A DNA stretch of 52,551 nucleotides from an uncultured Acidobacteriaceae bacterium (GTDB lineage: Bacteria; Acidobacteriota; Terriglobia; Terriglobales; Acidobacteriaceae), in the NCBI GenBank assembly GCA_964609355.1, contig CAZSUK010000497.1:1-52551 (forward strand). Reading direction: 5' to 3'. Below are positions 9,764 to 44,042 of the stretch, piece after piece (positions within the stretch are counted from its first letter, which is position 1; each line of letters starts with the position of its first letter). Below the pieces are notes generated by a model. It searched no databases and had not been told where the DNA came from. It saw nothing but the letters and a program-made list of their open reading frames with translations. The position numbers and the translations under genes are program-made.

Positions 9764-9764
9764 C

Positions 9765-10730: not shown

Positions 10731-10797
10731 GGTGAACAGGTTACCATCGTTGTCGGGCCCAGCTTCCTGTGCATCACAGCTAGGAGAGGTGTTGTCT

Positions 10798-11271: not shown

Positions 11272-11275
11272 AAAT

Positions 11276-11302
11276 GCCGGCTGACACTGGATGTCAGCCG
11301 GC
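11276..11302. terminator. Bidirectional stem-loop terminator between convergent genes
   Basis: Perfect 11-bp stem GCCGGCTGACA / TGTCAGCCGGC with a 5-nt loop. It lies 4 nt after the stop at 11271 and 12 nt before the catalase stop at 11315. Confidence 0.6.
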
Positions 11303-11314
11303 CCCGACGCTTAT

Positions 11315-12187: not shown

Positions 12188-12333
12188 GAGTTCTCCTTAG
12201 GATGACGCAGGTTTTCTGCAGGTGTTTCGTTCGACAGTTCGGCGTGCCACCATCTACAGACTTACCTGTGTGAGTCCCAAACGGTACGTGGAGTTGTATG
12301 CTTCGTGCTCGACGTTGCTGGCGGACGAACAAT

Positions 12334-12380
12334 GAGTGGGTGGCCCAGGTCTCGCGTTTGCGACCCCGGCCACCCCACTC
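12334..12380. repeat. REP-like imperfect palindrome (GAGTGGGTGGCCCAGGTCTC ... GGCCACCCCACTC)
   Basis: Outer arms at 12334-12345 and 12368-12380 are complementary except for one extra C. The core CCCAGGTCTC is shared with elements at 16323, 21828 and 46544. Confidence 0.4.
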
Positions 12381-12510
12381 AAAAGCCGGGCTGGGGGGCA
12401 GTGGCGCTATCGCTGGAGCGGAGCCGAGGTGCTTCGGCATTCTTGAGCCCTTAAAGTAAAGCCTCCTTGGGATTGATAAAGAGGCCGGGCATAGATATAA
12501 CCAATTCTGG

Positions 12511-17680: not shown

Positions 17681-20011
17681 ATGTCTGCCTGGCGGGTTCT
17701 CCTTGCGGTTTTCTGCCTATTCGCGCCGATGCTCCGGGCACAGCAGAAGTATGCCCTGCTAATCGGCATCGACACCTACCAGCCGCCTAATACGGTAATA
17801 AAGCCTCCTCCCGGAGTATCCAGCGGACGTTTCGCCCCGGGCGCACCGCTTTTCACCAATCTCGCCGGTCCGACCAATGACGTTGCTTCCGTGCGCCAGG
17901 TGCTCACCAGCGCAAAATTCGGCTTTCCCAATGACGACCAACACATTCACCTGCTGGAAAACGGTGAGGCGACGCGAGTGGGCATCCTGGCGGCGATGAA
18001 CAAATATTTAATTAATGAGCCGCAGAAGGGAGACATTGTTGTCCTCTATGTCGCCGCCCATGGGTCCTTGCGAGTTAACACAAAATCGAAGAAGCAAACC
18101 TTCGATCTTGGGGGTAAGCCCACCCCACTCGATAACACCATAGTGCCCGCGGACGCTTATCTGGGTGCGGAGGATGTTCGCGACCGCGAAATGGCTCGCA
18201 TTTTCAACCAGGCTTTGGACAAAGGAATTCGCCTGACCGCCATTTTCGATACCTGCCATTCAGGGGGCACAGCGCGTGGGGCGCAGAGCGGGCCCAGGAT
18301 GGCGGCGCGCATGCTGGCCTACGATCCCCGGGATATCGCGGAGCCTCCTGACGTCGATGCCGGCGGCACACCGGTGATCGCACCGGAAGACCGCAGTGAC
18401 AATTCCGCCCTGATCCTGGCGGCAACACAAGTTGACCAGAAGGCGATGGAGCTGGCGGATGCTTCACCCCCGCACGGCGCCTTTACCCTGGCGTTGATCG
18501 ATGCATTGCAGGCGCTGCCGGCTAATATTCCTGCGGTCGATCTTTGGAAGCGGGTGCAGGTGGGCCTGGAAGTTGAGGGCATAACCGATCAGCAACCGGT
18601 GCTCGACGGAACCAAACGGCGAAAACAGCAACCGCTGTTCGGTGGAGAAGCCGATACCGGCAAAGTGCGGGCGGCGGTCCAACAGGTGCAGGACCAAGGA
18701 GTGATCCTAGACATCGGCGCGGTGTCAGACATCGGCATCGGCAGCGAGTTCGTATCCATTCTCCCGGCTGCAGGCGAGAAAGTAGCCCTCCGCATCACGG
18801 AGGCCGAGGGTATCGATCGCTCCAAAGCTACAGTGGTTTCTCCTGCGGGCGCGAAGGTGGCTGCCAAAGATGTCTTTGAATTGGCAAAATGGGTCCCCGC
18901 CAAAAAACCGAACCTGTACTTCTGGGTGCCTGTCTCTCAGTTGACCCAGGCGCAGATTACCGCTGCGGTGAGCGAAGCTCGATTGTCGGGTGTCCGTCTA
19001 GTGAATGATCCGACCCGCGAAGCATGGAGCTATCTCATCAGCTGGGATGGTTCGCAGTGGACTACGCAGAAAGCCGGGGTCCGCGGCGCAGATCCGCTCG
19101 CAGCAACCCTGACTGCAGACCTCATCAAGCGCAAGTTACCAAAAGACGCAGTGGTGTGGCTCAACCTGCCTCCGGCAGCGGAGGTGAGCACCCCGTTGCT
19201 GAGGAACGATCCAACCAGCGCCGCGCAAACTACCGCGAGCGAAGTCCAGGCGATGTATGTTCTGGCAGGCACGGTCACGGAAAGCGGCCCTGCGTATACC
19301 TGGTACAACCGGGGCGAGTTGATTGCCGGCCGCCAGACACCGGCGGGTTACGGAAACGGCTGCTCGGCGGATTCTCCCTACCCCATCCGTACGGAATGGG
19401 CTTCCGGTGTCGATACGGTAGCTACGCTCACCCAGTTTGCGGCCGGGCTTGCCAAGCTCAACGGATGGGTCCAGCTACTGCAATCAGGCGCAGCCGGCGG
19501 CGGCTCCGATTATCCCTACCACCTCTCCCTGCTGCGTGAAGCCGACAGTACGACCGCGGAGGACAAGGGAAAAACCCATGCCGACGATGTTTACCAAATC
19601 ATGCTCCAGGCTCGCGGAGATACGCGGGCTGATCCACGTTGGGTCTATGTGTTGGCGATTGATTGCCAGGGAAAGGGAGACTTGATGTTCCCGCAACAGG
19701 GCGGCAACAATCGCTATCCCCTGGAAGCCGGCAGGCTCGACCAGATTCGGCTGCCTGGCGCAAGGTTTAAAATCTCGCCTCCATTTGGAACCGACACCTA
19801 TGTACTTTTGTCGACGTCGACGCAGCTAGCCAATCCTGACGCGCTGAGCTTCGAAAGCGTGACTCGGGGTCCGCTCAAAGAACCGTCTTCACCGGTCGAG
19901 ATGCTGCTGATTTCTACCAGTGCGGGAGAGCAGGGAGCCACCTTGGAGACGCCTACGGACTGGGGAGTGGAATACCTGCAGATGCATAGCCAGCCGGAAA
20001 AAGCACCGTGA
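17681..20011 (+). CDS. Secreted caspase-family (peptidase C14) protein with a long C-terminal extension
   Basis: Sec leader MSAWRVLLAVFCLFAPMLRAQQ. Caspase fold with YALLIGIDTY and the His/Cys dyad VVLYVAAHGS ... AIFDTCHSGG. About 480 further aa, whose end (WVYVLAIDCQGKGDLMFPQ...YVLLSTS) resembles DUF4384 from memory. Confidence 0.85.
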   Translation: MSAWRVLLAVFCLFAPMLRAQQKYALLIGIDTYQPPNTVIKPPPGVSSGRFAPGAPLFTNLAGPTNDVASVRQVLTSAKFGFPNDDQHIHLLENGEATRVGILAAMNKYLINEPQKGDIVVLYVAAHGSLRVNTKSKKQTFDLGGKPTPLDNTIVPADAYLGAEDVRDREMARIFNQALDKGIRLTAIFDTCHSGGTARGAQSGPRMAARMLAYDPRDIAEPPDVDAGGTPVIAPEDRSDNSALILAATQVDQKAMELADASPPHGAFTLALIDALQALPANIPAVDLWKRVQVGLEVEGITDQQPVLDGTKRRKQQPLFGGEADTGKVRAAVQQVQDQGVILDIGAVSDIGIGSEFVSILPAAGEKVALRITEAEGIDRSKATVVSPAGAKVAAKDVFELAKWVPAKKPNLYFWVPVSQLTQAQITAAVSEARLSGVRLVNDPTREAWSYLISWDGSQWTTQKAGVRGADPLAATLTADLIKRKLPKDAVVWLNLPPAAEVSTPLLRNDPTSAAQTTASEVQAMYVLAGTVTESGPAYTWYNRGELIAGRQTPAGYGNGCSADSPYPIRTEWASGVDTVATLTQFAAGLAKLNGWVQLLQSGAAGGGSDYPYHLSLLREADSTTAEDKGKTHADDVYQIMLQARGDTRADPRWVYVLAIDCQGKGDLMFPQQGGNNRYPLEAGRLDQIRLPGARFKISPPFGTDTYVLLSTSTQLANPDALSFESVTRGPLKEPSSPVEMLLISTSAGEQGATLETPTDWGVEYLQMHSQPEKAP

Positions 20012-20014
20012 GTG

Positions 20015-21757
20015 TTACTTTACGAATTTCAGATTGGTATCGCCGTAGAGTACATAAGCCAACGCGGTAGGGTTGCCCGTATCCTTATAGACCTCGCGTC
20101 GCGTGCGCTCCAGGGCCGCGCTCACATCCACTGGGCCGCTAGCCAGCCCATCTTGTACCAGCTGATAAAAGTGCACTGAGAATTTAGCTGCTACCTGGTC
20201 GTTGACTGGCCATAGTGCGCCAATATATCCAATGGCGCCCTTGCTCAGGACCGCGGGACCGAAGCCATCCACGAAGTTGCCGCTGCGCGTCGCATTTCCG
20301 ACATCGCATGCATTGAAGAAGAAAAAAGTATGGCTTAACGGTGGACTTTGCGCCATCGAGCGCCACGATGTCACGTCCAGAGCTCCATCTTCCAGTAAGA
20401 TCTCAAACTCATTGTTGGCCGCATCCAATTCTCCGTGTCCTGCAAAATGAACAATGCCTTGAGGCGGATTTTGAAAGAGTGCTTTCAATGCATTCCTGTT
20501 TCCGTTGATGGCGCTGTAGCCGCTTAGCCGGGCAAGCTGCTGGGTCTCTTCTGCCTCCCCATCCAGCGATCGACTGCCGGTGTAGTGCGGCGCAATCACA
20601 AACGTATGAGGAATATTCTCTGAGTACGGAGGGTTTTGCGTCATTGCCCCACCACTGGTATCCCAGCGAGCCACAGAATAATCCAGGCCAAGAAAGTTCT
20701 GTTCATCAGTGCCGTCTTCCCGTACCGGCCGCATCAACTCCCACGGTATGTCCGGCTGGTCCGATTCAATCTGAATGGTACGAAACAGCTTGCCCCGTGC
20801 GGCGATCGTTGCCCAAAAAGCCCTTTTGAATACGTCGGGCGCATAGTGCTGATAGAGCACCTCCCCGAACCCTTTTGCGTGTTCGCTTACGCGGTCGGGA
20901 GCAATCAACTGGGATCCACGCCCGGCACTCGCAGGCGAATGTTGTGCGAGCCACTCTGGAAAGCCGGTTAAATCCGGTAACTTGCCCGGGGGAAGATGAA
21001 AGTATGGGGAAAAGATGAATACGTTGTTATCCCTGATGAAGACCAGCAGGTCTGGTTTGGGCACCGTGTTGTCGAGAGCTCCAGATGCATTGCCGACCGA
21101 CGCCGCCGTGGTTGCCATTGGTCTGCTGGGAGGTTCCGCAGCCTGCTGGGGCGTAGTGGGGATGACGTGAACATCCCGGCTGATGAACGCCAGGTACGCA
21201 TTGTTGTAGCCAAAAGTGGCCACCAAATGGATCACGCCACTGGCCGCGGCCGCAGGGCTGGCTTTGACAACAAAGGTGGCCGCGGTGGCATTACCGTGGC
21301 GCGGCAACTCGATACTGGTCATTCCCGTTCCGTGACTAAATACCAAGCCGTCTCCGGCCAGAGTCACGTCCAATTTCCAGCTCTGCTGTGGGGTGGCCGG
21401 CAGGGTGAACACCAATTTGCCCTCAGGAGTCGAATCTCCATTGAGGATTTCTGCGTTGCTTAGCTTCTGCTCCGTCAGCGAAACAACGACGGTGAAGTCC
21501 TGGCCCGCGGCTACAGATTCCGGACTTAGGAGCAAGGGATATGTTTCCACCCGCTCTTGTGCCGGTGTGGAATCTGACTGGGTTACCGGGACCTTGCTTG
21601 GGGTGGCAGCCGGCGACCTGGTATCCATCGATACGTCATTGCCGATGGAGTTTGTGGAAGGAGCTCGCGTGTTGACCGTAGGACTACGCCCAAAGACAAG
21701 CCAAAGCGAAATGGCCACACCAGCAATCGCCAGCCAGTATTTCTTTTCAAGAGCCAT
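20015..21757 (-). CDS. Membrane-anchored CHAT domain (caspase-fold) protein
   Basis: N-terminal TM helix (KKYWLAIAGVAISLWLVFG), S/T/P-rich linker, beta-rich module. C-terminal CHAT-like domain with IVHFAGHGELD and FFFFNACDVGN (His/Cys dyad). Confidence 0.8.
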   Translation of the reverse strand: MALEKKYWLAIAGVAISLWLVFGRSPTVNTRAPSTNSIGNDVSMDTRSPAATPSKVPVTQSDSTPAQERVETYPLLLSPESVAAGQDFTVVVSLTEQKLSNAEILNGDSTPEGKLVFTLPATPQQSWKLDVTLAGDGLVFSHGTGMTSIELPRHGNATAATFVVKASPAAAASGVIHLVATFGYNNAYLAFISRDVHVIPTTPQQAAEPPSRPMATTAASVGNASGALDNTVPKPDLLVFIRDNNVFIFSPYFHLPPGKLPDLTGFPEWLAQHSPASAGRGSQLIAPDRVSEHAKGFGEVLYQHYAPDVFKRAFWATIAARGKLFRTIQIESDQPDIPWELMRPVREDGTDEQNFLGLDYSVARWDTSGGAMTQNPPYSENIPHTFVIAPHYTGSRSLDGEAEETQQLARLSGYSAINGNRNALKALFQNPPQGIVHFAGHGELDAANNEFEILLEDGALDVTSWRSMAQSPPLSHTFFFFNACDVGNATRSGNFVDGFGPAVLSKGAIGYIGALWPVNDQVAAKFSVHFYQLVQDGLASGPVDVSAALERTRREVYKDTGNPTALAYVLYGDTNLKFVK

Positions 21758-24912: not shown

Positions 24913-25896
24913 CTATTCATCGAGCCCGAGCTCTTTGATGCCTTTGCCGCCGTGTTTCTTCAGGTCCGCCAGCAGCCCTTCGTCTGACAGGTCAAGCGTG
25001 TGGGAGTGCTTCCAGTCATGGCGCACCACGTCATGCAGGCGGTCAACGATGTGCTTGTCAACCACCTCGATGGCCAGCTCGCGCCGGCTGCTAAAACTAC
25101 CGGGGGCCAGGTTGATCGATCCCACGATCGCCTTTTCTCCGTCGGCCAGGAGCATTTTTGCATGAAGCTTAAGATGCTTCAGTTTGCGTACTTCGACGCC
25201 CACGTCATTGAGGATCCGTAACCCTCCGACGCCTTCCAGCAGTTTTTCTTTCTTGAGCGTGTGCGGAGGTCGCGCCATCGCATGCACTTTAACTCCGCGT
25301 GTTTTTGCCCGCACCAGGTGTTCGATGATCATCTGGTCCTGATACCGTTCATTCTGTAACCACAGCGAATGCTTGGCATCGTCAATGAACTGGGTAATCC
25401 GTTCGCGGCCATTTCCGCGGCACCAGATCAGATGAGCGCTGTTTCCGGAAGCAAAGTTCTGGCGGCTCCAGTCGGCTTCAAAGCACTCGATGATTTCCGC
25501 AACTTCATGCGGCTCCGTGGTGATGATCGCGTAGTCGCGCGTCTCGGTTAGGTTTTCACTTTCCCAATTCAGCGATTTCACGAACGCCGTAGCGCTGTCG
25601 ATCACCATGGATTTTTCATGGGTGATGTCGAATTCCGGATTGCTATCCAGTACCTGGACCCCGGCCGCCTCTAATGCGGCGCGGCTTTCTTCGTTCTCAG
25701 AAACACCATTACGGCGCTTGGGGTTGAGCATGATGCGCACCTTCACACCCCGGTGCTGCGCTTCCACTACCGCCGCGAGTAAGGACGGATCGGTGAAGAC
25801 GAACATTTTGATGCGCAGTGACTCGGTCGCGCGATGAATTGCGTCCAGGATCGGCTTTGCGGAATCGTCTGGTAAAACAAGCAGACTACGGGACAT
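24913..25896 (-). CDS. Phospholipase D-like protein with two HKD motifs (cardiolipin synthase/PLD superfamily), soluble
   Basis: 327 aa with two HxK..D motifs (THEKSMVID and LHAKMLLADGEKAIVGSINL). No TM segment. Starts 8 nt downstream of the ABC exporter stop. Confidence 0.85.
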   Translation of the reverse strand: MSRSLLVLPDDSAKPILDAIHRATESLRIKMFVFTDPSLLAAVVEAQHRGVKVRIMLNPKRRNGVSENEESRAALEAAGVQVLDSNPEFDITHEKSMVIDSATAFVKSLNWESENLTETRDYAIITTEPHEVAEIIECFEADWSRQNFASGNSAHLIWCRGNGRERITQFIDDAKHSLWLQNERYQDQMIIEHLVRAKTRGVKVHAMARPPHTLKKEKLLEGVGGLRILNDVGVEVRKLKHLKLHAKMLLADGEKAIVGSINLAPGSFSSRRELAIEVVDKHIVDRLHDVVRHDWKHSHTLDLSDEGLLADLKKHGGKGIKELGLDE

Positions 25897-29476: not shown

Positions 29477-32400
29477 TCATTTGGCAGTGGCGATCAGGTG
29501 GAAGATCTGGGCTCCATATTTTTCTACAATTCCCATTCCTACGCCCGGCACAGCGAGCAAGTCAGAGTCGCTCCTCGGGCAAGTGCTTGCTATATTGCGC
29601 AACGTGCGATCACCAAAGATGCGAAAGGCGGGCATTTTTCTCCGCTTGGCCTCGGTCAATCGCCAGGCACGCAATGCTTGTTCCAGGCGCGCCTGGCGCT
29701 CCGGTGGAGGCGCATCTGACGCTGTTGCCGCGGCGGCACGTTTTTTGGCGCGTTTTGGAGTGGCTCCCGGAGCGGCTGCATCTCTCATCACGAACAGGTG
29801 GGCCTGACTCTCATTGAAGTTGAGTCCTGCGGGCAAAATGCTGACGTTCCGGTAAGGGATGCGCTTGCCTTGCGTCTCGAAAACGGCATCGGTAAACGAC
29901 AGCAGTTCTGCCCGGGCCATGGCCCCCAGAACTTCTTCGAAGGTATCCCGGCTGAGGTCGTTATCGGGATAGAGGTCGGTGTGCAGCTTTCCCGTGGATC
30001 GGGCAGGAACAGATCGCAGTTTTCTAAGAATGCGATCGAAAGCGATTTTTTCCGCATGCGTCGGAGTGCGAAACTTTTGTGCAACGCAGTTAGCCGGCTC
30101 GCAAAAGTCGCATATTCCGCATCCCTCAGCAGTGTCTGACGTATCCCCGAAATGGTGAACAAGTGATTTCATGCGGCAGTGGTGGCCCTCCGCGAAGCGG
30201 ATAATCTCCTCCAGCTGACTCTGCTTCTGATCGGCCTGCTGGGTATAGGAAGCTCGCCAACTGTTTACGCCAAGGCTTACATTCTCGGCAAAATCCACCA
30301 CCGCGCCTTTGTGAATCCACAGCTTCTCCAAGGCTTTGTCGAAGATGTCTTCATCCATCTTCGCCAGCTTGCGCACTGCTTCCTTGGGTTGGGATTGGCC
30401 GGAAAGCAGGGTAAAGATGCGGTCCAGCAACGCAACCGGAGGATAATCTCGCCCGAAGAAGAAGTCATGGGTGTGGCGATCCGCATAGGAGTACATCAGA
30501 ATGGCGCGGCTGGGCTTTCCATCCCTGCCTGCGCGGCCTATTTCCTGATAGTAACCCTCCAGACTGCCTGGAAACGCAGTGTGAATCACCGTGCGGACAT
30601 CGGCTTTATCAATGCCCATGCCGAAGGCCGTGGTCGCTACCATGACATCCGCCTTACCTGCCATGAACTGTTCCTGCACCCGCCGCCTTCGTTGGGCGTC
30701 GAGCCCGGCATGATAGCCGGCCACGCGAAAGTCGCGTGCCCAGGCGCCTGCGAGAGCCTCGGCTTGTTTACGCGTGGGCGTGTAGACAATGGCAGGACGG
30801 TTGACGGCCTCACGCAGGATGGCATGCGCCAGCCCGGGCCGATTGGAGGGCAGTGCCTCCACAATCTCGATACCGATATTTTCCCGGCGAAACCCGTGAA
30901 TGAACTGCTTGATGCCGCTCAGCCCCAGCTGGGCCGCGATGTCTTTCTGTACCAGGGGAGTGGCGGTTGCAGTAAGAGCGAGTACCGGCGCGGGGCGAAA
31001 GCTCGGCAGATACTGGCCCAGCATACGGTAATCGGGACGAAAGTCGTGGCCCCATTGCGAGATGCAATGCGCTTCATCGATGGCGATCAGCGCAGGCTTT
31101 CGTTTGGCCAACATCTCAGGAAAACCGGGCACGCGAAGCCGCTCGGGAGCGATAAACAGGAACTGAAGGTTGCCCTTTATGTAGTCGATACAAGCCTGCC
31201 GGGAGCTCTCACGGTCGCGGCCGGAGTGGATGCACTCGGCCGACAGGCCGAGATCCTTGAGCTTGCGCACCTGGTCGTCCATCAAGGCGATCAGCGGGCT
31301 GATTACCAGCGTCGTCCCGCCACGCGCCAGGCCCGGTAATTGATAGCAAAGTGATTTGCCTGATCCTGTGGGCATCACCAGCAGCGCGTCTTCGCCTGCC
31401 GTCACGGCCTGGCACACCGCCTGTTGGTTTGGGCGAAAACTGGAAAATCCAAAAACACTTTTGAGCAACTCGCTGGGGCTGGCGTTGCTGGGGATTGCTT
31501 TCGGAGCGGGAGTTTCTTGCGGGGCAGCGTTCACTGGTGTGGTTTCGCTCACCCGGCCCACGACCGAGCGCACGTATTCACTAATCCGTTCCAGAAAAGG
31601 ATCCAGTTGTGCTTCGCCATGCTGGATGCGGTTCAGGAACGCTTCCCATTGCCCGGTCATCGCCGGGCTCTTCACTTCTGGATGTACTACCTCGATCAGG
31701 TGGATCCCTTTTTCCGTGGCTTCGAGGCTCTTGCCTGTCCTAATGACGTAGGCGCGCTTCAAAAGCACTTCAATGATGGCTGCCCGGGTGGCTGGTGTTC
31801 CGAGGCCGGTCTCCTTCATGGCATCGGAGAGTTCTTTTTCATCCAGACTTTTGCCGGCGGTTTGCATAGCCGTCAGGATCGTGGCGTCGGTGAACCGTTG
31901 GGGAGGGCGGGTCTTCTTCTTTTGCGCTTCGACCTTGGTTACTGTCTGTGGCTGGCCCTGGGCGAGCGTCGCTGGCAGCGCCTGGTCGGTTACCTCGGCA
32001 TCTCTCCCCTGCTCTCGTCTGCGGGTGTCCGCGCCGGGATCGAGAATCTTCCAGCCTGCCTGGCGCACCACTGTTCCGGTAGTTCGGTACCGGTCCACCA
32101 CCGCTGCACTGCGGATGGCTGTAATCACCGTGGTTACTTCCTGCAGGTAGTCGTTATGCCACAACATGAGCAGGCGCCGGCAGACCAGGTCGTAAATCTT
32201 GCTTTCCTCATCCGAGAGCCGATCAGGCTGTTGCTTAACCGCGGTGGGAATAATGGCGTGGTGATCGCTGACCTTGGCGTCGTCGACATAGCGCTTGCCC
32301 AGAGTGCGCTCGCCTGTTCCCGGAGCCAATTGTTGTTGATAGGGACCGGAAATGGCCTGCACGATTTTAGGGAGTGTTTCCGCGATATCTGTCGAAAGAT

Positions 32401-33394
32401 GACGGCTGTCGGTGCGGGGATAGCTGATGAGTTTGTGCTGCTCATAAAGCGTCTGCGCCAGATCAAGCGTTTTTTGCGCGCTGAAGCCATAGAGACGGTT
32501 GGCATGCCGCTGCAGGTCAGTCAGGTCATAGAGCAATGGCGGTGGCGTACGCACCGTCTCTGAGCTGAGCGTCTCGATGGCGGCGTGGCCGGTTTTCGCC
32601 CGCGCTATGATCTGCTCGGCTTCCTTTCCATCGGCGGCCAGTCGACTGCTTTCGTTGGTCTTGACGTCAGGCCGGAACCAGGTGCCGTCATACGTTTCGG
32701 TCAGTGCTGTTGCCTGGAAGGTGGCGACCACGTGCAGGTAATCCTCGGGCACGAAGCGTCGTAACGCGAGTTCACGGTCAACGATCATGGCCAGCGTCGG
32801 AGTTTGCACCCGGCCGACAGACAGCTCTTCGTTGTAGACGATTGAGTAGGCGCGCGACAGATTCATGCCTACCAGCCAATCGGCGCGGCTGCGTCCGCAG
32901 GCAGCGTCGGCCAGCCGGTCATACTCGCTGCCAGGGCGAAGGCTCGCGAATCCTTTCCGGATCGCATCCGGCGTCAGTGAGGAGATCCACAGCCTGCTGA
33001 AGGGTTTTTCACTTTTGACCGCTTCGTAGATGTAGCGGAAAATCAGCTCGCCTTCACGCCCCGCATCCGTGGCGCACACGATCCGCGAAACGCGCGGAGA
33101 GAGAAGTATCTTTTGCACTACTTCAAACTGCTCTTTGCTGCGCTCGTAGACCACTAGGGGCCATTGATCGGGGAGAATGGGCAGCGACTCGAGTCGCCAC
33201 TGCTTCCACTGGGGATTCATCTGGTGGGGCTCAGCCAGCGCAACCAGGTGCCCGATGGCCCAGGTGACCACGTATCCATTGCCCTGCAGATAGCCGTTCC
33301 CCCGCTTGTCGGCCCCTAATACACGAGCAATGTCACGCGCCACCGAGGGCTTTTCCGCCAGAACTGCGATGGTGCCGGATTCCTGTTCACTCAT
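29477..33394 (-). CDS. Fusion protein: type IA DNA topoisomerase III (N-terminal) and RecQ-family helicase with HRDC (C-terminal)
   Basis: Single 1305-aa ORF. Residues 1-~610: TOPRIM (IAVLAEKPSVA), CATDAGREGE, active-site Tyr in LISYPRTDSRHLS (Tyr325), TPATRAAIIE. Residues ~612-640: Pro/Ala/Ser linker. Residues 641-1305: RecQ motif 0 FRPNQ, PTGSGKS, DEAH, LTATAT, YYQEIGRAGRDG, Cys cluster CRMK...CGICDFC, C-terminal HRDC (AFRIFGDRTLRNIA...LLAVPGVG). Confidence 0.9.
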   Translation of the reverse strand: MSEQESGTIAVLAEKPSVARDIARVLGADKRGNGYLQGNGYVVTWAIGHLVALAEPHQMNPQWKQWRLESLPILPDQWPLVVYERSKEQFEVVQKILLSPRVSRIVCATDAGREGELIFRYIYEAVKSEKPFSRLWISSLTPDAIRKGFASLRPGSEYDRLADAACGRSRADWLVGMNLSRAYSIVYNEELSVGRVQTPTLAMIVDRELALRRFVPEDYLHVVATFQATALTETYDGTWFRPDVKTNESSRLAADGKEAEQIIARAKTGHAAIETLSSETVRTPPPLLYDLTDLQRHANRLYGFSAQKTLDLAQTLYEQHKLISYPRTDSRHLSTDIAETLPKIVQAISGPYQQQLAPGTGERTLGKRYVDDAKVSDHHAIIPTAVKQQPDRLSDEESKIYDLVCRRLLMLWHNDYLQEVTTVITAIRSAAVVDRYRTTGTVVRQAGWKILDPGADTRRREQGRDAEVTDQALPATLAQGQPQTVTKVEAQKKKTRPPQRFTDATILTAMQTAGKSLDEKELSDAMKETGLGTPATRAAIIEVLLKRAYVIRTGKSLEATEKGIHLIEVVHPEVKSPAMTGQWEAFLNRIQHGEAQLDPFLERISEYVRSVVGRVSETTPVNAAPQETPAPKAIPSNASPSELLKSVFGFSSFRPNQQAVCQAVTAGEDALLVMPTGSGKSLCYQLPGLARGGTTLVISPLIALMDDQVRKLKDLGLSAECIHSGRDRESSRQACIDYIKGNLQFLFIAPERLRVPGFPEMLAKRKPALIAIDEAHCISQWGHDFRPDYRMLGQYLPSFRPAPVLALTATATPLVQKDIAAQLGLSGIKQFIHGFRRENIGIEIVEALPSNRPGLAHAILREAVNRPAIVYTPTRKQAEALAGAWARDFRVAGYHAGLDAQRRRRVQEQFMAGKADVMVATTAFGMGIDKADVRTVIHTAFPGSLEGYYQEIGRAGRDGKPSRAILMYSYADRHTHDFFFGRDYPPVALLDRIFTLLSGQSQPKEAVRKLAKMDEDIFDKALEKLWIHKGAVVDFAENVSLGVNSWRASYTQQADQKQSQLEEIIRFAEGHHCRMKSLVHHFGDTSDTAEGCGICDFCEPANCVAQKFRTPTHAEKIAFDRILRKLRSVPARSTGKLHTDLYPDNDLSRDTFEEVLGAMARAELLSFTDAVFETQGKRIPYRNVSILPAGLNFNESQAHLFVMRDAAAPGATPKRAKKRAAAATASDAPPPERQARLEQALRAWRLTEAKRRKMPAFRIFGDRTLRNIASTCPRSDSDLLAVPGVGMGIVEKYGAQIFHLIATAK

Positions 33395-33519
33395 TTTGCT
33401 TCTCTCAGTCTAATCCCTCCTCGCAGAGGAGGCCTTGTGGGCGCCTTTGCGGCGGCGGCGCCAGTGGAGGGACCAGCGGTTCTACTGTTGCGGCAACATG
33501 AGAAATGTTTTAATCAACT

Positions 33520-34731
33520 GTGGACGTTTCCCTCGATCAGATAAGAAAAGCAGAACAGCGAATTCGCGATTTCATCTACTTCTCCCCCTGCCAGCTCTCG
33601 GCGGCTCTTTCCGAAGTGACCGGCCAACAGGTGTACCTGAAGCTGGATAACCTGCAGCGGACCGGCGCCTTCAAAGAACGCGGTGCGCTGAACCGGATTC
33701 TGCTCTTGAGCGATGACGAAAAGCGGCGCGGAGTCGTCGCCGCCAGTGCGGGCAATCACGCCCAGGCCGTCGCCTACCATGCCACCCAGCGCGGCGTAGC
33801 GGCGCGTATCGTCATGCCGCTCATGACCCCGCTGGTGAAAATCTCAGCAACCCGTGGATTCGGGGCCGAGGTGATCCTCCAGGGAGCAAATTACGATGAG
33901 GCATGTGTGGAAGCACTCCGCATCTGCGAATTGGAGGGGATGACTTTTCTGCATCCTTTCGATGACCATGCGGTCATCAATGGTCAAGGCACGATCGGTC
34001 TTGAATTACTGGAGCAGGTGCAGGGCCTCGAAGCCGTCGTCGTGCCAATCGGCGGCGGTGGGCTGATCAGCGGTGTGGCCTGTGCATTGAAAGAAGCCAA
34101 CCCGGCGATCCGCGTTGTGGGTGTCGAAACGGAGCGTCTTCCTTCCATGCTGCGCGCGATTGAGAACGGAAGCCCGGTCACCCTGCCGGCGGAAGCCACG
34201 ATTGCGGATGGCATTGCTGTGCGTCGCGCAGGGGATCTCACTCTGCCCCTGGTGAAACGATTTGTCGACGAGATCGTCACCGTCGATGAAGAGGAGATTG
34301 CCAACGCCATCATGGTTTTGCTGGAAAGAGAAAAAACCCTGGCGGAGGGTGCGGGAGCCGTGGCGCTGGCGGCCCTGCTACAGAAGAAGACCTCACTGAA
34401 AGGGCAACGAACAGCGGTTTTGGTCTGCGGCGGAAACATCGATGTAAGTCTCCTGGCCAGGATTATCGAACGCGGCCTGGTGAAGGATAGCCGGCGGGTG
34501 CGCATCCGGGTCCATCTGGCGGACCGGCCCGGTGCTCTCCATCAGCTGACAAAGATCCTCTCCGATCAGCGTGCAAACATTGTCGAAACCTTACACAACC
34601 GTGCCTATTACGGCGTCAATTTGGGCGATACCGTCATCGACATCACGCTCGAAACGCGCGGCGCCGCGCATATTGTCGCGATTGGCGAAGCACTTGAGGC
34701 CGAGGGCTACCGATATGAGCGTATCCAGTAA
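33520..34731 (+). CDS. ilvA: Threonine ammonia-lyase (threonine dehydratase), short form with one regulatory domain
   Basis: GTG start, 403 aa. PLP-lysine motif [24 protein letters not shown] loop and a C-terminal ACT-like domain. Confidence 0.9.
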
Positions 34732-35917
34732 ACCAATGCAGGAATTTATGCGGCTGAAGCGCCTTCCGCCGTATGTCTTCAACATCACCGGCGAACTGAA
34801 GGCTGCTGCCCGGGCGCGCGGAGAAGACATTATTGACTTTGGTATGGGCAACCCTGATGGCGCTACGCCCAAGCACATCGTCGACAAGATGATCGAAGCA
34901 GCGGGCAAGACCGCGACCCACCGCTATTCTTTGTCGAAGGGAATTCCAAGACTGCGCAAAGCAATTTGTAATTGGTACCTCAAACGGTATGGGGTTGAGC
35001 TTGATCCGCTCATCGAGGCAATTGTGACCATAGGTTCCAAAGAAGGAATCGCTCACCTCTGCCTGGCCACGCTCGACCGCGGGGATGTGGTGGCGGTGCC
35101 CAGCCCCAGTTATCCAATTCACATTTATGGTCCGGTGATCGCGGGAGCGAACGTTCGCGCCATCCCGGTGCACAGCACCGATGATTTTCTAGCGGAGTTG
35201 GAGCATGCCGTCCCTCTGATGTATCCACGTCCGAAAATGCTGATTCTGAATTTTCCTGCCAATCCCACCACGCAGTGTGTGGACCTGGCATTTTTCGAGC
35301 GAGTCGTCGCTCTCTGTAAAGAATTCCAAATCTACCTGGTGCATGATCTGGCCTATGCTGACATCGTTTTCGATGGATATCGTGCGCCGTCAATCCTGCA
35401 GGTACCGGGAGCGAAGGAGATTGCGGTCGAGTTTTTCACTTTGTCGAAGAGCTACAACATGCCCGGCTGGCGGGTGGGTTTTATGGTGGGCAATCCTGAG
35501 ATGGTGGCAGCCCTGGGCCGGCTGAAGAGCTATTTTGATTACGGAACGTTCACGCCGATTCAGGTGGCTTCCATCCTCGCCCTGGAAGGTCCGCAGGAGT
35601 GTGTGCAGGAAATTTGCGACAACTACCGCAAGCGGCGGGATGTCCTCGTTAAGGGATTGAATCAACTGAACTGGCAAGTGCCATTGCCCAAGGCCACGAT
35701 GTTTGTTTGGGCATCCATCCCGGAGCGGTATAAAGCGATGGGCTCGCTTGAATTTTCCAAAAAACTCCTGACCGAGGCCAAGGTCGCGGTCAGCCCTGGC
35801 GTCGGATTTGGGGAGCACGGGGATGAGCACGTGCGTTTTTCGCTGATTGAGAACGAAGAACGAACCAGGCAGGCACTGCGGGGCATCAAGCAGATGTTCC
35901 AGCAAGAGAGCACCTAG
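34715..35917 (+). CDS. Class I/II pyridoxal-phosphate aminotransferase (alanine transaminase-like)
   Basis: RLPPYVF N-terminus, PANPT, PLP-lysine motif [19 protein letters not shown] at 34715 has GAGGG 8 nt upstream and overlaps the ilvA end by 17 nt. The ATG at 34736 is an alternative. Confidence 0.85.
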
Positions 35918-39328: not shown

Positions 39329-42300
39329 TTAATGGAAGTCGTGGGAACGCACTTCGAGGTTGTGGAAGGCCAGCGGTTGGATGCGTTTTGCCTTAACGTG
39401 AATGACGCCGTCCTGATTCTGTAGCGCACCTTCCACCAGAACAAATTTGCTGCGCGTGACTACGACACGCTCCCGTTCATAAAGATCAGGAGTGATGATG
39501 ACGTTGGCAATGCCGGTTTCATCTTCCATGGAGAGAAAGATGAAACCCTTAGCCGTGCCGGGGCGCTGTCTTGCAATGACACAACCGGCTGCGCGCACAT
39601 ATTCGCCATCCTTGTAATTGCGCAGTTCCGAGGAGCTCAGTACCTTCATCGCATGCAGCTCTTTACGCCGATAGTACAGCGGATGATGTCCCACAGTCAG
39701 ACCGGTACCGGAGTAGTCCGCACTCAGCCGCTCCTCCGTAGTCATCTGCCGAAGCGGGGAAGACACCTGATGTCCACGATGCTGCTTTAGCAAAGGCCCC
39801 ACTGGCCTGACCGCTTCTTCTACCTGCCAAACAGCGTCACGCCGATGATCGATACCGTCAAGACTATTCAGAGCGCCGATGCGGGCTAACAGGGTAAGCT
39901 CTTTACGCTGCAGCAGAGGTACCCTGCGGGATAGATCTTCCGCTGAGCGGAAGAGGCCTGACTGACTGCGGGATGCGACCATCGCTTCTCCCACGTCCTG
40001 CCTTAAACCTTTGGCATACATCAGGCCCATGCGCATGGCCCGCTCGCCATTGCTTTCATGCTCGATCGTGCACAGCCACTCGGATACCTGCACATCAATG
40101 GGACGTATGCGCAGGCCATGACGCTGTGCATCTTTTACCAATACAGCAGGCGCATAAAAACCCATCGGCTGATTATTAAGAATGGCGCAGGTAAATGCGG
40201 CCAGATAACGCACCTTGAAGTAAGCGGAAGCATACGCAATCAACGCAAAACTGGCCGCATGCGATTCAGGGAAGCCATAAAGCGCGAAGGAAGTAATATT
40301 CTGGATTATGTTTTCCTGGGTAGTTGCATCGATTCCATTCTTGGTCATGCCGCGGCGCAACTTCACTTCCAGTTGCTCCATGCGCTGCCAGGAACGCCGC
40401 ATGCCGACAGCACGGCGCAATTCTTCTGCTTCTGCGCCGGAAAAATCAGCCACGGTCATGGCCATGCGCAAGAGTTGTTCCTGAAACAGGGGAACCCCCA
40501 ATGTCCGCTTGAGCACTGGCTCGAGCGATGGATGGGGGTAGGTTACCTCCTCCTTTTTCTGCCTCCGGCGCATGTAAGGGTGCATCATCTTGCCCACGAT
40601 AGGCCCGGGCCGGATGATGGCTACCTGCACCACTAGGTCATAGAATTTTTCCGGGTGATTGCGCGGCAACGATGCCATCTGCGCCCGGCTTTCCACCTGA
40701 AACATGCCCACCGTATCGGCACGCTGCAGAGTTTCATACACTACCGGATCCTGAGGCAATTGCGCCAGGTCGGCAGGCTCATCGTAATGCTGCGCAGTCA
40801 GGACAAGAGATTCCTGGATCACTGCCATCATGCCCAGACCGAGCAAATCCACTTTGATGATCCCCAGGTCAGCACAGTCTTCTTTATCCCACTGCACCAC
40901 GGTTCGGCCAGGCATGGAGGATCGTTCCAGCGGCACCACACGCTCCAGCTGGCCCTGGCATATCACCATACCCCCGGAGTGTTGACCGAGATGCCGCGGC
41001 AAATCCTGAATACGCATGCAGAGCTCGAGAAATTTGCGGATATGCGCGTGCTCCACGTCGAAACCTGCATGAAGAAAAGAGTGTTCCAGGGTGTCTTTTT
41101 CCCCCTTCCACTCCCACTGCGACACCAGGCTCGAGAGGCGTCCGAGTGTCTCAGGATCGAAGCCCATCGCCTTTCCCACTTCACGCGCGGCCGACTTGCC
41201 GCGATAGGTGATCACATTCGCAGTAATGGCGGCTCCAAGTTCTCCATACCGCTGATAGATGTACTGAATCGCCTGTTCGCGTTTATCACCGGAGGGAAGA
41301 TCAAGATCGATGTCAGGCCATTCTCCGCGGCTTTCGCTTAGGAAGCGCTCAAAAAGCAATTCCATCCCCACCGGATCGACCGCGGTTATTTCGAGCGCGT
41401 AGCAGACGGCGGAATTGGCTGCACTGCCACGCCCTTGTATCAGGATGTCGTTTTTCTTGCAATATTCCACCAGGTCCCAAACGATCAGAAAATAGCCGGC
41501 AAAGCCTAGTTTCTCAATCAAGGCCAGCTCATGCTCCACTTGCTGTTCAGCTTTTTCGAGCAGCTTGCGATTGTGTTTGGAACCATAGCGCTTCAAGACA
41601 CCTTCTGCCGTACGGCGACGCAGAAAGCTATCCATCGTTTCACCCTGTGCTACCGGATAGCGGGGAAATTCATACCCTAGATCATTCAGCTCAAATTCCA
41701 GCCGCTCAGACAATGCCAGGGTGTTCGCGATGGCCCGGGGAAGATCGCTGAATCTGGCCGTCATCTCCCGTGCATCACGCAAATAGCGTTGTTGATTCAC
41801 GGTGAGCAAACGGCCTGCATGTTCCAGGTCAGTGTGGTGCCGTACCGCGGTAAACACATCGAGGATTTCCCGATCATAGGCAGTTGCATAACGAACGCCA
41901 TTCGTAGCCAGTAGCGGCAGTCCCATTTGCTCTGCAATGCGGATGGCAGACTGGTTTCGCCATTCTTCCTCGCGCTCCCCATGACGCTGAAGTTCGATGT
42001 AAACATTTTGCTGCCCAAAGAGTCGAACCAGCTTTTCCGTAACCTTAACTGCTTCTGATTCCCCTCCACGTATCAGTGCCGACGCCAGAGGGCCTTCCTC
42101 TCCGCCAGTCAAACAAATCAGACCAGGCGAGAACTCTTCCAGATCATCAAGCGTGGCCGCGCCTTCACACTTGGTGGTCTCCCGCATTTTGAATCGGGTA
42201 ATCAGTTGGCAAAGATTTTGATACCCGGCGCGCGAAGCACATAGCAGCGGAATACGAGCAGGTTCCGGCACATGCTGATGTGGCAACCATGCAGGTGGTG

Positions 42301-42535
42301 TAAGCCGTCTTCCCAGACTGGATACTGCGATTTCTGCTCCAATATGGGCGCGCACCCCATGCTTGCCGGCAAGGGTATGAAACCGAGCCGCGCCGTAAAC
42401 ACCATTTCGATCCAACAACGCCATGGCCGGCATAAGGAGTTCGGCTGCGCGCTGGATAAGATCTTCGGGCAGCGACGCTCCCTCAAGAAAGCTGAAAGCG
42501 CTGGCTGCATGCAACTCCACATACTGCTCAGTCAT
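39329..42535 (-). CDS. dnaE2: Error-prone DNA polymerase III alpha-like subunit DnaE2 (ImuC)
   Basis: 1068 aa. PHP N-terminus YVELHAASAFSFLEGAS and a Pol IIIa core. Overlaps imuB by 8 nt, in the classic imuA-imuB-dnaE2 order. Confidence 0.95.
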   Translation of the reverse strand: MTEQYVELHAASAFSFLEGASLPEDLIQRAAELLMPAMALLDRNGVYGAARFHTLAGKHGVRAHIGAEIAVSSLGRRLTPPAWLPHQHVPEPARIPLLCASRAGYQNLCQLITRFKMRETTKCEGAATLDDLEEFSPGLICLTGGEEGPLASALIRGGESEAVKVTEKLVRLFGQQNVYIELQRHGEREEEWRNQSAIRIAEQMGLPLLATNGVRYATAYDREILDVFTAVRHHTDLEHAGRLLTVNQQRYLRDAREMTARFSDLPRAIANTLALSERLEFELNDLGYEFPRYPVAQGETMDSFLRRRTAEGVLKRYGSKHNRKLLEKAEQQVEHELALIEKLGFAGYFLIVWDLVEYCKKNDILIQGRGSAANSAVCYALEITAVDPVGMELLFERFLSESRGEWPDIDLDLPSGDKREQAIQYIYQRYGELGAAITANVITYRGKSAAREVGKAMGFDPETLGRLSSLVSQWEWKGEKDTLEHSFLHAGFDVEHAHIRKFLELCMRIQDLPRHLGQHSGGMVICQGQLERVVPLERSSMPGRTVVQWDKEDCADLGIIKVDLLGLGMMAVIQESLVLTAQHYDEPADLAQLPQDPVVYETLQRADTVGMFQVESRAQMASLPRNHPEKFYDLVVQVAIIRPGPIVGKMMHPYMRRRQKKEEVTYPHPSLEPVLKRTLGVPLFQEQLLRMAMTVADFSGAEAEELRRAVGMRRSWQRMEQLEVKLRRGMTKNGIDATTQENIIQNITSFALYGFPESHAASFALIAYASAYFKVRYLAAFTCAILNNQPMGFYAPAVLVKDAQRHGLRIRPIDVQVSEWLCTIEHESNGERAMRMGLMYAKGLRQDVGEAMVASRSQSGLFRSAEDLSRRVPLLQRKELTLLARIGALNSLDGIDHRRDAVWQVEEAVRPVGPLLKQHRGHQVSSPLRQMTTEERLSADYSGTGLTVGHHPLYYRRKELHAMKVLSSSELRNYKDGEYVRAAGCVIARQRPGTAKGFIFLSMEDETGIANVIITPDLYERERVVVTRSKFVLVEGALQNQDGVIHVKAKRIQPLAFHNLEVRSHDFH

Positions 42536-44042
42536 ACAACGCCTCTACCAGCCAACCTTCCTGCATAAGATCTCGTGTCAGGCAGCAGCAGAGCCTGCAT
42601 TCATTATTTGCATCATCATGGCTCCTCGCCACAACATCCCATTGTTCCAGCGACCATAAGGAAGGTTTCCACCAGTCTCCGGCAGACGACCATGGCCCGT
42701 AAGCACATTCGACGGTGTAGCGCTTTTCTCTGAAGATGAATGAGTGCGGTTGTCGATCGCGTACTGTCACGGTCACATTTTCCGGAGGCCGCAATTGCCG
42801 TACAGCAAGACGCTGACTGGGGGATTTTCTGCTTTCGGCAGAAGCTGGAACAGCAAATGGTTCCACCTGAAAAGCGTCCTGGCGGTGAGTGTCCTTTAGT
42901 ACCGCCTGACCTGCGCAGCCTTCTCCCACGATCGCGTGGATTCGAGCCAGGGTTACATCCAGCCGCATAGGCTCTGGTATCTGGGGAGAAAAAAGTCCGA
43001 GTTGCACTTTGCTGGTGCTGCCCGGTTGTGCGCTCAAGCAGAGAGACAGGATTGCAGCCTGTGGAGGGTGCGCCTGCAGATCCAGATGGATCAGCTTCAA
43101 ACATAGCTTACGGTCGGTATTTGGCAGTGCGGGCCTTACTGTGTGGGAATGTGTTGTTCCCCCCTCAAGATCCAGGTCGAGTGTAATCGAGGCCAGCGCC
43201 AATATGCGCGATTGGGCGCGCACAATGAGCTGATCGAGCATCACTCCCACGATAAAAAGCAGAGAATCGAGTAGCTCCACGGGCGCGTCGAACTCCATTC
43301 TTTCTTCGAGAGCGAGGCCGGGCTCAACCGCAGTAAACAAATGCGGCAATTCTCCGCGCGCCAGCAGGCGCAGTTCCTCGCCTGCGTGCCCAATCCGGGC
43401 AATCAATTCTGTTTCTTCAAGATTTCCCAGTTCTCCCAATGTCGTGATGCCCCACATGGAGAAGGTTTCCGCATGTTCCAGCGAAAGATCGAGAACCGTG
43501 AGTGGTAACGGCGCGAGGGCAGTCCTTTCCATTCCTCGGGGCACTACCCGAATACCTGTACCCGAATGCCCGCGTGCCAGGCACCTGGCAGCACGAACAT
43601 TGCTGCTGATTGCAATCGATGCCCGTACGCCAAGTGCCTTTGTTCTTTTCAGAAGGTTTTCACCCAATGCATCAGGAGAACCGAAAAATTTTTCGGTACC
43701 GGTAATATCGATCACGCAAGTAAAGCAACCGTCACTGCTTTGATCTTCCATCCGGGGAGAGAAAGAGCTGGCGCACTCGAGCAAGGCTGCATGCGCTGCT
43801 GCCTCCTCGCCTCGTGAGCGTTTTAAAACGACGGCGGTGGGAAACATCTCCATTTCCAACTTTGTCATTTCTGGTGCTATTCCCAGCGTCCAGGCCAAAC
43901 GGTTGAGGGAGCACACCTGCTCGAACGGTGGTTCGCCATCCAGCACAGCAATCGGCTTGCGTTGCAGTTCCGCCCTCAAGCGCAGCAGTGCCTGCAGGGG
44001 AAATTCCTTTGCCAGCAGGCAAGCGTAGCGGGGAGCAGTCAT
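42528..44042 (-). CDS. imuB: ImuB, Y-family polymerase-like protein of the mutagenesis cassette
   Basis: N-terminus MTAPRYACLLAKEFPLQALLR, ~500 aa. The ATG at 44042 forms an ATGA overlap with the imuA stop. The longer ORF to 44075 is less likely. Confidence 0.85.
   Translation of the reverse strand: MTAPRYACLLAKEFPLQALLRLRAELQRKPIAVLDGEPPFEQVCSLNRLAWTLGIAPEMTKLEMEMFPTAVVLKRSRGEEAAAHAALLECASSFSPRMEDQSSDGCFTCVIDITGTEKFFGSPDALGENLLKRTKALGVRASIAISSNVRAARCLARGHSGTGIRVVPRGMERTALAPLPLTVLDLSLEHAETFSMWGITTLGELGNLEETELIARIGHAGEELRLLARGELPHLFTAVEPGLALEERMEFDAPVELLDSLLFIVGVMLDQLIVRAQSRILALASITLDLDLEGGTTHSHTVRPALPNTDRKLCLKLIHLDLQAHPPQAAILSLCLSAQPGSTSKVQLGLFSPQIPEPMRLDVTLARIHAIVGEGCAGQAVLKDTHRQDAFQVEPFAVPASAESRKSPSQRLAVRQLRPPENVTVTVRDRQPHSFIFREKRYTVECAYGPWSSAGDWWKPSLWSLEQWDVVARSHDDANNECRLCCCLTRDLMQEGWLVEALYD

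Follow-up and report, generated by a model that had tools for sequence, protein, structure and literature searches.

A natural single-chain fusion of topoisomerase III and a RecQ-family helicase in an Acidobacteriaceae bacterium and its relatives

Introduction

The pairing of RecQ-family helicases with DNA topoisomerase III (Topo III) spans E. coli to humans and underlies Bloom syndrome. In E. coli the catenation and decatenation of DNA are joint work of the two enzymes, as is the resolution of converging replication forks (Harmon 1999; Suski & Marians 2008), and in eukaryotes BLM or Sgs1, acting with Top3 and RMI1, dissolves double Holliday junctions (BLM-Top3a-RMI literature). Here we describe a gene that encodes both partners as one protein. 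It occupies positions 29477..33394 on the minus strand of the 52,551-nt contig CAZSUK010000497.1 (assembly GCA_964609355.1, uncultured Acidobacteriaceae bacterium), and this whole contig is what we call the window. A sequence-only reading that preceded our analysis had described the two families as established functional partners, in agreement with the literature.

E. coli RecQ and Topo III belong to the same two enzyme families as the halves of the fusion, and their chemistry is expected to be alike, but in E. coli they are two polypeptides encoded by unlinked genes. We know of no stable direct complex between them. The eukaryotic Sgs1-Top3-Rmi1 and BLM-TOP3A-RMI1/2 complexes do couple a RecQ-family helicase physically to Topo III. 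They also hold the topoisomerase N-terminal to the helicase core and possess an HRDC domain, all as in the fusion. Their coupling is nevertheless non-covalent, running through the disordered N-terminus of Sgs1 or BLM, and needs the OB-fold protein RMI1, whereas the fusion is covalent. RMI1 supplies a loop to the Top3 gate, while the topoisomerase of the fusion has a loop of its own at the position of the E. coli decatenation loop; no RMI1 or OB-fold domain was matched by Pfam in the fusion open reading frame (ORF) or in the adjacent genes. An engineered Top3-Sgs1 fusion has reportedly been studied, by Bennett and Wang in PNAS in 2001, and the protein described here would be its natural counterpart.

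Reverse gyrase likewise carries an SF2 helicase-type ATPase and a type IA topoisomerase in one polypeptide, and a 2020 PNAS paper presents it as the unique helicase/type IA fusion. Its order is opposite to that of our protein, with the helicase N-terminal and the topoisomerase C-terminal. Its helicase is minimal, lacks the zinc-binding, winged-helix and HRDC elements of RecQ and is tightly coupled through a latch, and the enzyme is restricted to (hyper)thermophiles. The sequence-only reading had drawn the same distinction of domain order and helicase type, which is borne out by the Pfam domain order and by the low score with TIGR01054, the reverse gyrase model (117.5 bits, on the topoisomerase part only, where the cut-off is 471.7). 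The fusion thus contradicts the view of reverse gyrase as the sole helicase/type IA fusion. We consider it probable, by analogy with the described partners, that the protein is a bifunctional enzyme in which RecQ unwinding would feed the tethered Topo III for decatenation and for the dissolution of recombination intermediates.

Results

One uninterrupted reading frame joins Topo III to RecQ

The fusion gene is a single ORF of 1305 aa, stop codon included in its coordinates, that opens with ATG and contains neither an internal stop nor an N; all coordinates within the gene given below are on the minus strand. From N- to C-terminus it matches six Pfam domains: Toprim, Topoisom_bac, DEAD, Helicase_C, RecQ_Zn_bind and HRDC. 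The sequence-only reading had placed one uninterrupted 1305-aa ORF at exactly these coordinates and had seen in it a complete Topo III core joined to a complete RecQ. Pfam, alignments, curated family models and, for the RecQ half, an AlphaFold2 (AF2) structure model support this. Base and codon composition are alike in the two halves and in the flanking genes; G+C content at third codon positions is 0.69 and 0.65 in the halves and 0.59-0.69 in the neighbours. Antisense ORFs of 131-386 aa inside the gene gave no Pfam family match.

An adjacent topB and recQ merged by a frameshift or by a chimeric assembly join would also present itself as a fusion, and separate adjacent genes of this kind do exist in some bacteria. 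In Listeria monocytogenes NZ_LR134400.1 (L083, 8980..12929), recQ (8980-10752) and topB, annotated as DNA topoisomerase III (10776-12929), lie beside guaB, co-oriented and 23 bp apart, and probably form an operon. Although labelled as 'plasmid 3', this record is 594 kb long and carries housekeeping genes, and is therefore probably a chromosome fragment. This adjacency is independent genomic evidence of a functional link between the two enzymes. The Listeria pair is two proteins, and its RecQ is of the ordinary ~590-aa type; its order, recQ then topB, is opposite to that of the fusion, which speaks against a merged pair of this kind. Composition is uniform across the junction in our gene. The sequence-only reading had pointed to read-level evidence for a stop or frameshift at the linker as the sign of two genes; the sequence has no stop there, and the in-frame junction is kept across ~240 listed clusters of homologous proteins. 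Because the same junction is seen again in hundreds of assemblies that were made independently, with different pipelines and from several phyla, a frameshift or assembly explanation is excluded and retains a negligible probability. The fusion is a true chromosomal gene.

The topoisomerase half

The TOPRIM domain (aa 11-139; 32978..33364; Pfam Toprim, E 2.8e-10) contains Glu14 within AEKPS and the motif T-D110-A-G-R-E114-G-E. It is followed by domains II-IV of the type IA core (aa 157-601; 31592..32926; Pfam Topoisom_bac, E 1.3e-110), with the active-site Tyr325 in SYPRTDSR (32420..32422) aligned to Tyr328 of E. coli Topo III (ITYPRSDCR). Residues 12-615 align with residues 5-606 of the 653 of the E. 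coli enzyme (E ~2e-94; PDB 1d6m, 1i7d). Taken alone, this half exceeds the cut-offs of two curated models, NF005829 (711.8 bits against 597) and TIGR01056 topB (614.9 against 515.75). It is a member of the Topo III (TopB) subfamily of type IA topoisomerases and, judged from its residues, is apparently active. The active-site tyrosine had been placed at exactly this position by the sequence-only reading, and it is invariant among the fusions.

The same reading had also listed the acidic residues of TOPRIM, and this holds in part: Glu14, Asp110 and Glu114 are invariant, but in the DxD motif a Gly takes the place of the second Asp (TDAGREGE), again invariantly among the fusions. The same DxG occurs in nearly all stand-alone TopB proteins that we retrieved, from Burkholderiales, Bacteroidota, Bacillota and others, although the retrieval pattern, GREGELIFR, itself included that Gly. 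With this bias in the retrieval, DxG appears to be a trait of the subfamily and not a sign of inactivation. We therefore rejected DxG as a mark of an inactive topoisomerase.

Pfam finds no zinc ribbon in the fusion ORF, as the sequence-only reading had observed. The absence is true, but the special significance attached to it is not: E. coli Topo III also lacks zinc ribbons, so that a missing tail is weakly informative. Since the alignment reaches E. coli residue 606 of 653, RecQ replaces just a short C-terminal tail, the last ~50-60 residues of a stand-alone TopB; linker and RecQ stand where the E. coli enzyme has residues 607-653. Within the core, a loop at aa ~510-531 (MQTAGKSLDEKELSDAMKETGL; 31802..31867) aligns, with one 1-residue gap, to the decatenation-loop segment of E. 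coli Topo III, where the loop reportedly comprises residues ~502-519 (Li et al. 2000). An acidic loop at this position is typical of this TopB subfamily.

The RecQ half

Helicase lobe 1 (aa 654-812; 30959..31435; Pfam DEAD, E 4.7e-26) carries motif 0 (FRPNQ), Walker A (GSGKS, aa 677-681), the DEAH box (aa 773-776; 31067-31078) and an aromatic-rich loop, HCISQWGHDFRPDY. Lobe 2 (aa 860-959; 30518..30817; Pfam Helicase_C, E 1.1e-21) contains motif VI, QEIGRAGRDG, with Arg954 and Arg957. The zinc-binding subdomain (aa ~1046-1100; 30095..30259) presents Cys1073, Cys1092, Cys1095 and Cys1098 and is matched by Pfam RecQ_Zn_bind over aa 1051-1098 (E 7.7e-09; 36.6 bits against a cut-off of 25). The HRDC domain (aa 1234-1301; 29492..29695; Pfam HRDC, E 7.1e-19; 68 bits against 23.8) is preceded in the AF2 model by a disordered basic, alanine-rich stretch at aa ~1207-1226. 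The DEAH box had been located exactly by the sequence-only reading. Its other helicase assignments (motif 0, Walker A, arginine finger, zinc-binding cysteine cluster and HRDC) were all recovered by Pfam or alignment.

Between zinc-binding subdomain and HRDC, the AF2 model and Foldseek reveal a canonical RQC-type winged helix with a beta-hairpin (aa ~1113-1186; 29837..30058). The Pfam RQC model has no match in the fusion ORF. The winged-helix region named by the sequence-only reading is therefore visible in the structure model and not to Pfam, and the Pfam search that it had proposed gave the other five domains that it named, together with RecQ_Zn_bind, and not RQC. The AF2 model of aa 636-1305, built on a diverse alignment, has a predicted local confidence (pLDDT) of 89.1 and a predicted template-modelling score (pTM) of 0.75. 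Foldseek matches this model to the DNA-bound RecQ core of C. sakazakii (4tmu; E 4e-33; TM 0.76 on the target), with 576 columns aligned to that 511-residue catalytic core. The whole core of 1oyw is aligned too, and BLM is matched over 705 columns, HRDC included.

The helicase core aligns with residues 14-344 of E. coli RecQ (E 1e-88), and the zinc helices with their four cysteines realign with residues 361-404. Between the two blocks lies an insertion of ~65 alignment positions, an extra winged-helix-like element (aa ~987-1041; 30272..30436) whose secondary structure AF2 predicts confidently as three helices followed by two strands, placed between lobe 2 and the zinc hairpin. It is missing from the RecQ proteins of E. 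coli, C. sakazakii and D. radiodurans in alignments and structures, and it is kept across the fusion family, where it bears the motif KLW[IV]HGG (given as KLWIHKG for the window protein). Unlike E. coli RecQ, the RecQ half of the fusion has this insertion, and it falls in a separate clade. It appears to belong to a distinct RecQ subfamily that carries the extra insertion.

The linker, and the comparison with reverse gyrase

The two modules are joined at aa ~616-640 (31475..31549) by a low-complexity segment rich in Pro, Ala and Ser, SETTPVNAAPQETPAPKAIPSNASPSELLK, which is not conserved. It is ~25-30 aa long, with 6 Pro, 5 Ala and 4 Ser per 30 residues, much as the sequence-only reading had it (~30 aa near nt 31475-31560). 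The distance that separates RecQ motif I from the last conserved motif of the topoisomerase varies, and the equivalent linker in 153 fusions accordingly ranges from 13 to 249 aa, with a median of 40. Its pLDDT is below 50 in the AF2 model of aa 1-1200, a model whose overall quality was poor. Variable length and low-complexity sequence together indicate a flexible tether, not a rigid interface.

This bears on whether the protein could be a coupled topoisomerase of the reverse gyrase type, in which the helicase would gate a directional change of linking number (supercoiling or active relaxation). Both proteins unite an SF2 helicase with a type IA topoisomerase in one chain, and RecQ-Topo III mixtures are reported to alter plasmid topology (Harmon 2003); the conserved winged-helix insertion could conceivably act like a latch. 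Nevertheless, a non-conserved linker of 13-249 aa is ill suited to a fixed inter-domain gate, the domain order is opposite, and the score for TIGR01054 falls far below its cut-off. In addition, the helicase is a complete RecQ with zinc-binding, winged-helix and HRDC elements rather than a minimal module, and the hosts are mesophilic soil and water bacteria. We regard a reverse-gyrase-like activity as improbable and continue to favor a RecQ that feeds a tethered Topo III.

The fusion is common and its catalytic residues are invariant

A search of 5.8 billion proteins returned, among the matches listed, 120 clusters (at 90% identity) that are 69-97% identical to the window protein. All 120 carry topoisomerase and helicase Pfam domains, and 116 of them cover 99-100% of the query. 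Where the source is named, it is Acidobacteriaceae, Terriglobia or Ca. Sulfotelmatobacter, several of them on Mb-size contigs. An exhaustive HMMER search of 1.84 billion representatives at 50% identity added at least 40 further full-length fusions of 32-56% identity, and a word-index search from one fusion, P0121, added another 119 clusters among the matches listed, all again with both sets of domains. The named members of the latter are mostly Myxococcota (Anaeromyxobacter, Archangiaceae, Myxococcaceae and the cultured Archangium lansingense, on a 13.5-Mb contig). Among the matches listed in a scan of one genome per species, complete in-frame fusions occur in Solibacteraceae, Bryobacterales, Bryobacter, Oligoflexus (Bdellovibrionota), Polyangiaceae and an unclassified proteobacterium; among the 50%-identity representatives, P0179 comes from a Zetaproteobacteria metagenome-assembled genome (MAG). 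The listed clusters stem from JGI, ENA, NCBI and Logan assemblies. The architecture is widespread in at least four phyla, and is common rather than rare.

An alignment of 25 fusions, which share 34-74% identity with the window protein, shows the catalytic residues of both modules to be invariant. The invariant set comprises E14, D110, E114, Y325, R327, K680, the DEAH box at 773-776, R954, R957 and the cysteines 1073, 1092, 1095 and 1098. Motif 0, Walker A, the aromatic-rich loop and motif VI of the helicase are likewise unchanged. The loss of catalytic residues that the sequence-only reading had named as the mark of a degenerate fusion is thus not seen across this alignment.

In databases the fusions are named 'DNA topoisomerase 3' or, as for P0179, 'RecQ family helicase'. 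We found no description or characterization of the fusion in the full-text literature, from whose coverage most subscription journals are absent. The sequence-only reading had known of no characterized enzyme with this architecture and had allowed that it might belong to a common, characterized family. The literature covered agrees with the former statement, and the latter is right about the architecture being common in databases, while no characterization was found in that literature.

The two halves have evolved together

We built two neighbor-joining trees, each with one outgroup. The topoisomerase halves of the fusions form one clade, apart from all the stand-alone TopB proteins sampled. 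The RecQ halves also group in one clade, which a long branch sets apart from E. coli RecQ; its branching order is broadly like that of the topoisomerase tree. One clade for each half, with similar branching, suggests that the modules have evolved together since one fusion. Our working hypothesis, drawn from these two trees, is that a single old fusion may have been followed by vertical and horizontal spread with occasional fission or duplication.

Stand-alone RecQ-type genes (L010-L018, L020-L022 and L033) share 45-57% identity with aa ~636-1300, the RecQ half, and keep the extra insertion as well as the zinc-binding, winged-helix and HRDC elements. Their hosts are Acidobacteriaceae (Pseudacidobacterium, Granulicella, Edaphobacter), Ktedonobacteraceae and Polyangiaceae. 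These genes are preceded by a stop codon at a distance of 7-29 codons, and no topB was found within ~4 kb of them. The neighbor-joining tree places them within the fusion clade, which suggests that they arose by fission or duplication; one Polyangiaceae MAG, JAVTWR01, carries both a fusion (L019) and a stand-alone paralogue (L022). A split topB-recQ operon was considered as the precursor of the fusion and rejected, because no topB lies near the stand-alone RecQ genes and the Listeria order is opposite.

Genomic context, plasmids and the Dpd models

The window is ordinary chromosomal DNA that encodes enzymes of sugar metabolism, a manganese catalase, a fucosidase, transporters and proteases. 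Directly around the fusion lie genes for an amino-acid permease, an ABC exporter, a PLD-like protein, a PALP/ACT enzyme and an aminotransferase. An 83%-identical relative (L001) on a 3.6-Mb contig has the same order, whereas a 72%-identical relative has lost it, from which it follows that the gene stands alone and is not part of a conserved operon.

Stand-alone TopB is very common on plasmids (at least 5000 records, 3886 of them conjugative), and one PADLOC model of the 7-deazaguanine Dpd system, PDLC02865 'DpdF' (1499 positions), matches the whole fusion at 1625.8 bits. Both facts could suggest a mobile-element or anti-phage component, either DpdF or a TopB of plasmid or integrative-conjugative-element type. 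PDLC02865, however, appears to have been built from, or to contain, such Topo III-RecQ fusions. Two other PADLOC 'DpdF' models of 610-611 positions (ids given as PDLC02864 and PDLC02861) match the RecQ half at 445-521 bits, and since these models have the length of a plain RecQ, the PADLOC DpdF set looks over-inclusive. The NCBIfam DpdF model NF041063 stays below its cut-off (221 bits against 550). No Dpd component is present among the ten flanking proteins or in the Pfam annotation of the neighborhood, and the ten proteins form no defense system. At a coverage of at least 80%, the fusion was found in 0 of 72,556 plasmids and 0 of 50,697 phages, where only stand-alone TopB occurs, and its relatives sit on Mb-size chromosomal contigs. 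With NF041063 below cut-off, no Dpd neighbors and no plasmid or phage record, we rejected a Dpd, defense or mobile-element origin as very improbable. A chromosomal bifunctional enzyme is the reading that we retain.

A hexamer resembling a -10 box lies at 33407..33412 on the minus strand, ~12 nt upstream of the fusion start codon, and occurs at the same position in the Acidobacteriota orthologues L001, L002, L003, L004 and L008, reading TAGACT, TAAACT or TAAAAT. It might mark a very short leader, or might equally belong to the ribosome-binding region (GAGAGAAG). A simple promoter and terminator scan of the fusion gene performed no better than on shuffled sequence.

A complete mutagenesis cassette lies ~6 kb from the fusion at 39329..45076, on the minus strand throughout. 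It consists of an imuA-like gene with a RecA fold (44039..45076), imuB of the Y-family/IMS type (42528..44075) and dnaE2, an error-prone Pol III alpha (39329..42535). The relative L001 has an imuB-like fragment and a dnaE2-like Pol III alpha gene at a similar distance from its fusion. No LexA-like palindrome is common to the 200 nt upstream of the fusion in eight orthologues and the region upstream of the imuA-imuB-dnaE2 cassette of the window. Without such a shared palindrome, we dropped SOS regulation of the fusion gene as a candidate.

Other features of the neighborhood are noted for completeness. A caspase-like Peptidase_C14 protein (17681..20011, plus strand) adjoins a convergent CHAT/Peptidase_C25-like protease (20015..21757, minus strand), and in L001 and L002 the relatives of the fusion likewise have CHAT proteins at their sides. 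The PLD-like protein (24913..25896, minus strand), downstream of the ABC exporter, has two HKD motifs (PLDc_2, E 1e-43) and weakly matches the PADLOC DrmC models; the exporter and PLD-like pair is kept beside the fusion in L001. As listed, the ORF of the PALP/ACT enzyme (33520..34731) shares 161 nt (34571..34731) with that of the aminotransferase (34571..35917). As the aminotransferase Pfam match begins at residue 86, the true start codon probably lies further downstream.

Discussion

The mechanism that we propose for the fusion is modeled on the described partners. The RecQ module would bind forked, gapped or Holliday-junction DNA through its winged helix and HRDC domain, and would use ATP to translocate 3'->5' and unwind the duplex. 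The single-stranded DNA so made would be the substrate that the tethered type IA topoisomerase cannot do without; this enzyme would cut one strand via Tyr325 and pass another strand or a duplex through its gate. The net result may be an ATP-stimulated decatenation or catenation, acting on converging replication forks, on hemicatenanes and on double Holliday junctions, these last being resolved without crossover. The covalent tether would replace recruitment, which is mediated by the single-stranded DNA-binding protein SSB in E. coli and by the Sgs1/BLM N-terminus together with Rmi1 in eukaryotes. The topoisomerase lies N-terminal to the helicase core, just as Top3 does when bound on Sgs1 or BLM.

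Several observations weigh against this proposal. We infer the function, that is, both enzymatic activities and their coupling, and 'dissolvasome', the label given to the protein by the sequence-only reading, is likewise a functional inference. On the RecQ side, the protein passes the subfamily model TIGR00614 recQ_fam (387 bits against a cut-off of 219.8) and falls below the strict RecQ equivalog TIGR01389 (490 bits against 640.2); it is therefore a member of the RecQ family and not a canonical RecQ orthologue. The extra winged-helix insertion may give it a substrate preference that differs from that of E. coli RecQ. On the topoisomerase side, the loop at the decatenation-loop position is acidic and has the same length as in E. 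coli, but its sequence is unlike. Two fusions, L009 and P0148, lack the 16-residue loop at this segment altogether (LQ----KIGLGTA), so it is not universal among fusions. The AF2 model of aa 1-1200, based on 54 close homologues, has a mean pLDDT of 51 and a pTM of 0.30 and is uninformative on the docking of helicase and topoisomerase. Finally, a long and floppy linker is also compatible with mere co-expression without mechanistic coupling.

That last point leads to the possibility of two independent housekeeping activities, fused for co-expression or stoichiometry only. The linker is long, variable and probably disordered, as this would allow, and the stand-alone relatives of the RecQ half nest in the fusion clade, so the helicase can work alone. 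One distant fusion, P0206 (1193 aa, 32% identity), retains an intact topoisomerase (AEKPS, ATDAGREGE, YPRTDS) beside a degenerate helicase without motifs I, II and VI: GKS is missing, and where DEAH is expected the sequence reads 'VESAEK'. From its sequence it is apparently a fusion with a dead helicase, and it too counts against our proposal. On the other hand, the fusion is kept across several phyla with co-diverging halves and invariant catalytic residues, RecQ and Topo III are experimentally established partners, and the neighboring recQ and topB of Listeria indicate that selection has favored expressing and using the two together. On balance we think independent activities unlikely, and prefer an enzyme in which unwinding and strand passage are coupled.

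It is tempting to extend this view to the family as a whole. The fusions may represent a large, ancient and unrecognized family of RecQ-Topo III machines, each a natural single chain, with the window protein as its founding example. The family would belong to mesophilic bacteria (Acidobacteriota, Myxococcota, Bdellovibrionota and some Pseudomonadota) and would carry out dissolution and decatenation independently of RMI1 and SSB. The conserved winged-helix insertion would then serve to place the helicase, either on the gate of the topoisomerase or on a second arm of the DNA. We see the arguments for and against this wider proposal as evenly balanced.

Several practical consequences follow for annotation and for experiment. 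Hundreds of database entries named just 'DNA topoisomerase 3' would be bifunctional. The PADLOC 'DpdF' model probably captures these housekeeping proteins, and over-inclusive models of this kind could yield misleading single-gene matches. A natural fusion would offer a minimal one-polypeptide system, with no need for RMI1 or SSB, in which to study helicase-topoisomerase coupling, double-Holliday-junction dissolution and decatenation, and it should suit single-molecule work and cryo-electron microscopy.

The partnership of RecQ and Topo III is already known, the sequences described here are already public, and evolution has often fused proteins known to be partners; what is new is the natural single-chain form, an unrecognized variant of that partnership. 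It adds gene-fusion evidence, of the Rosetta-stone type, that RecQ and Topo III are partners in bacteria. If the wider proposal is true, the family would join reverse gyrase as the second natural fusion of a helicase and a type IA topoisomerase, and would alone contain a true RecQ.

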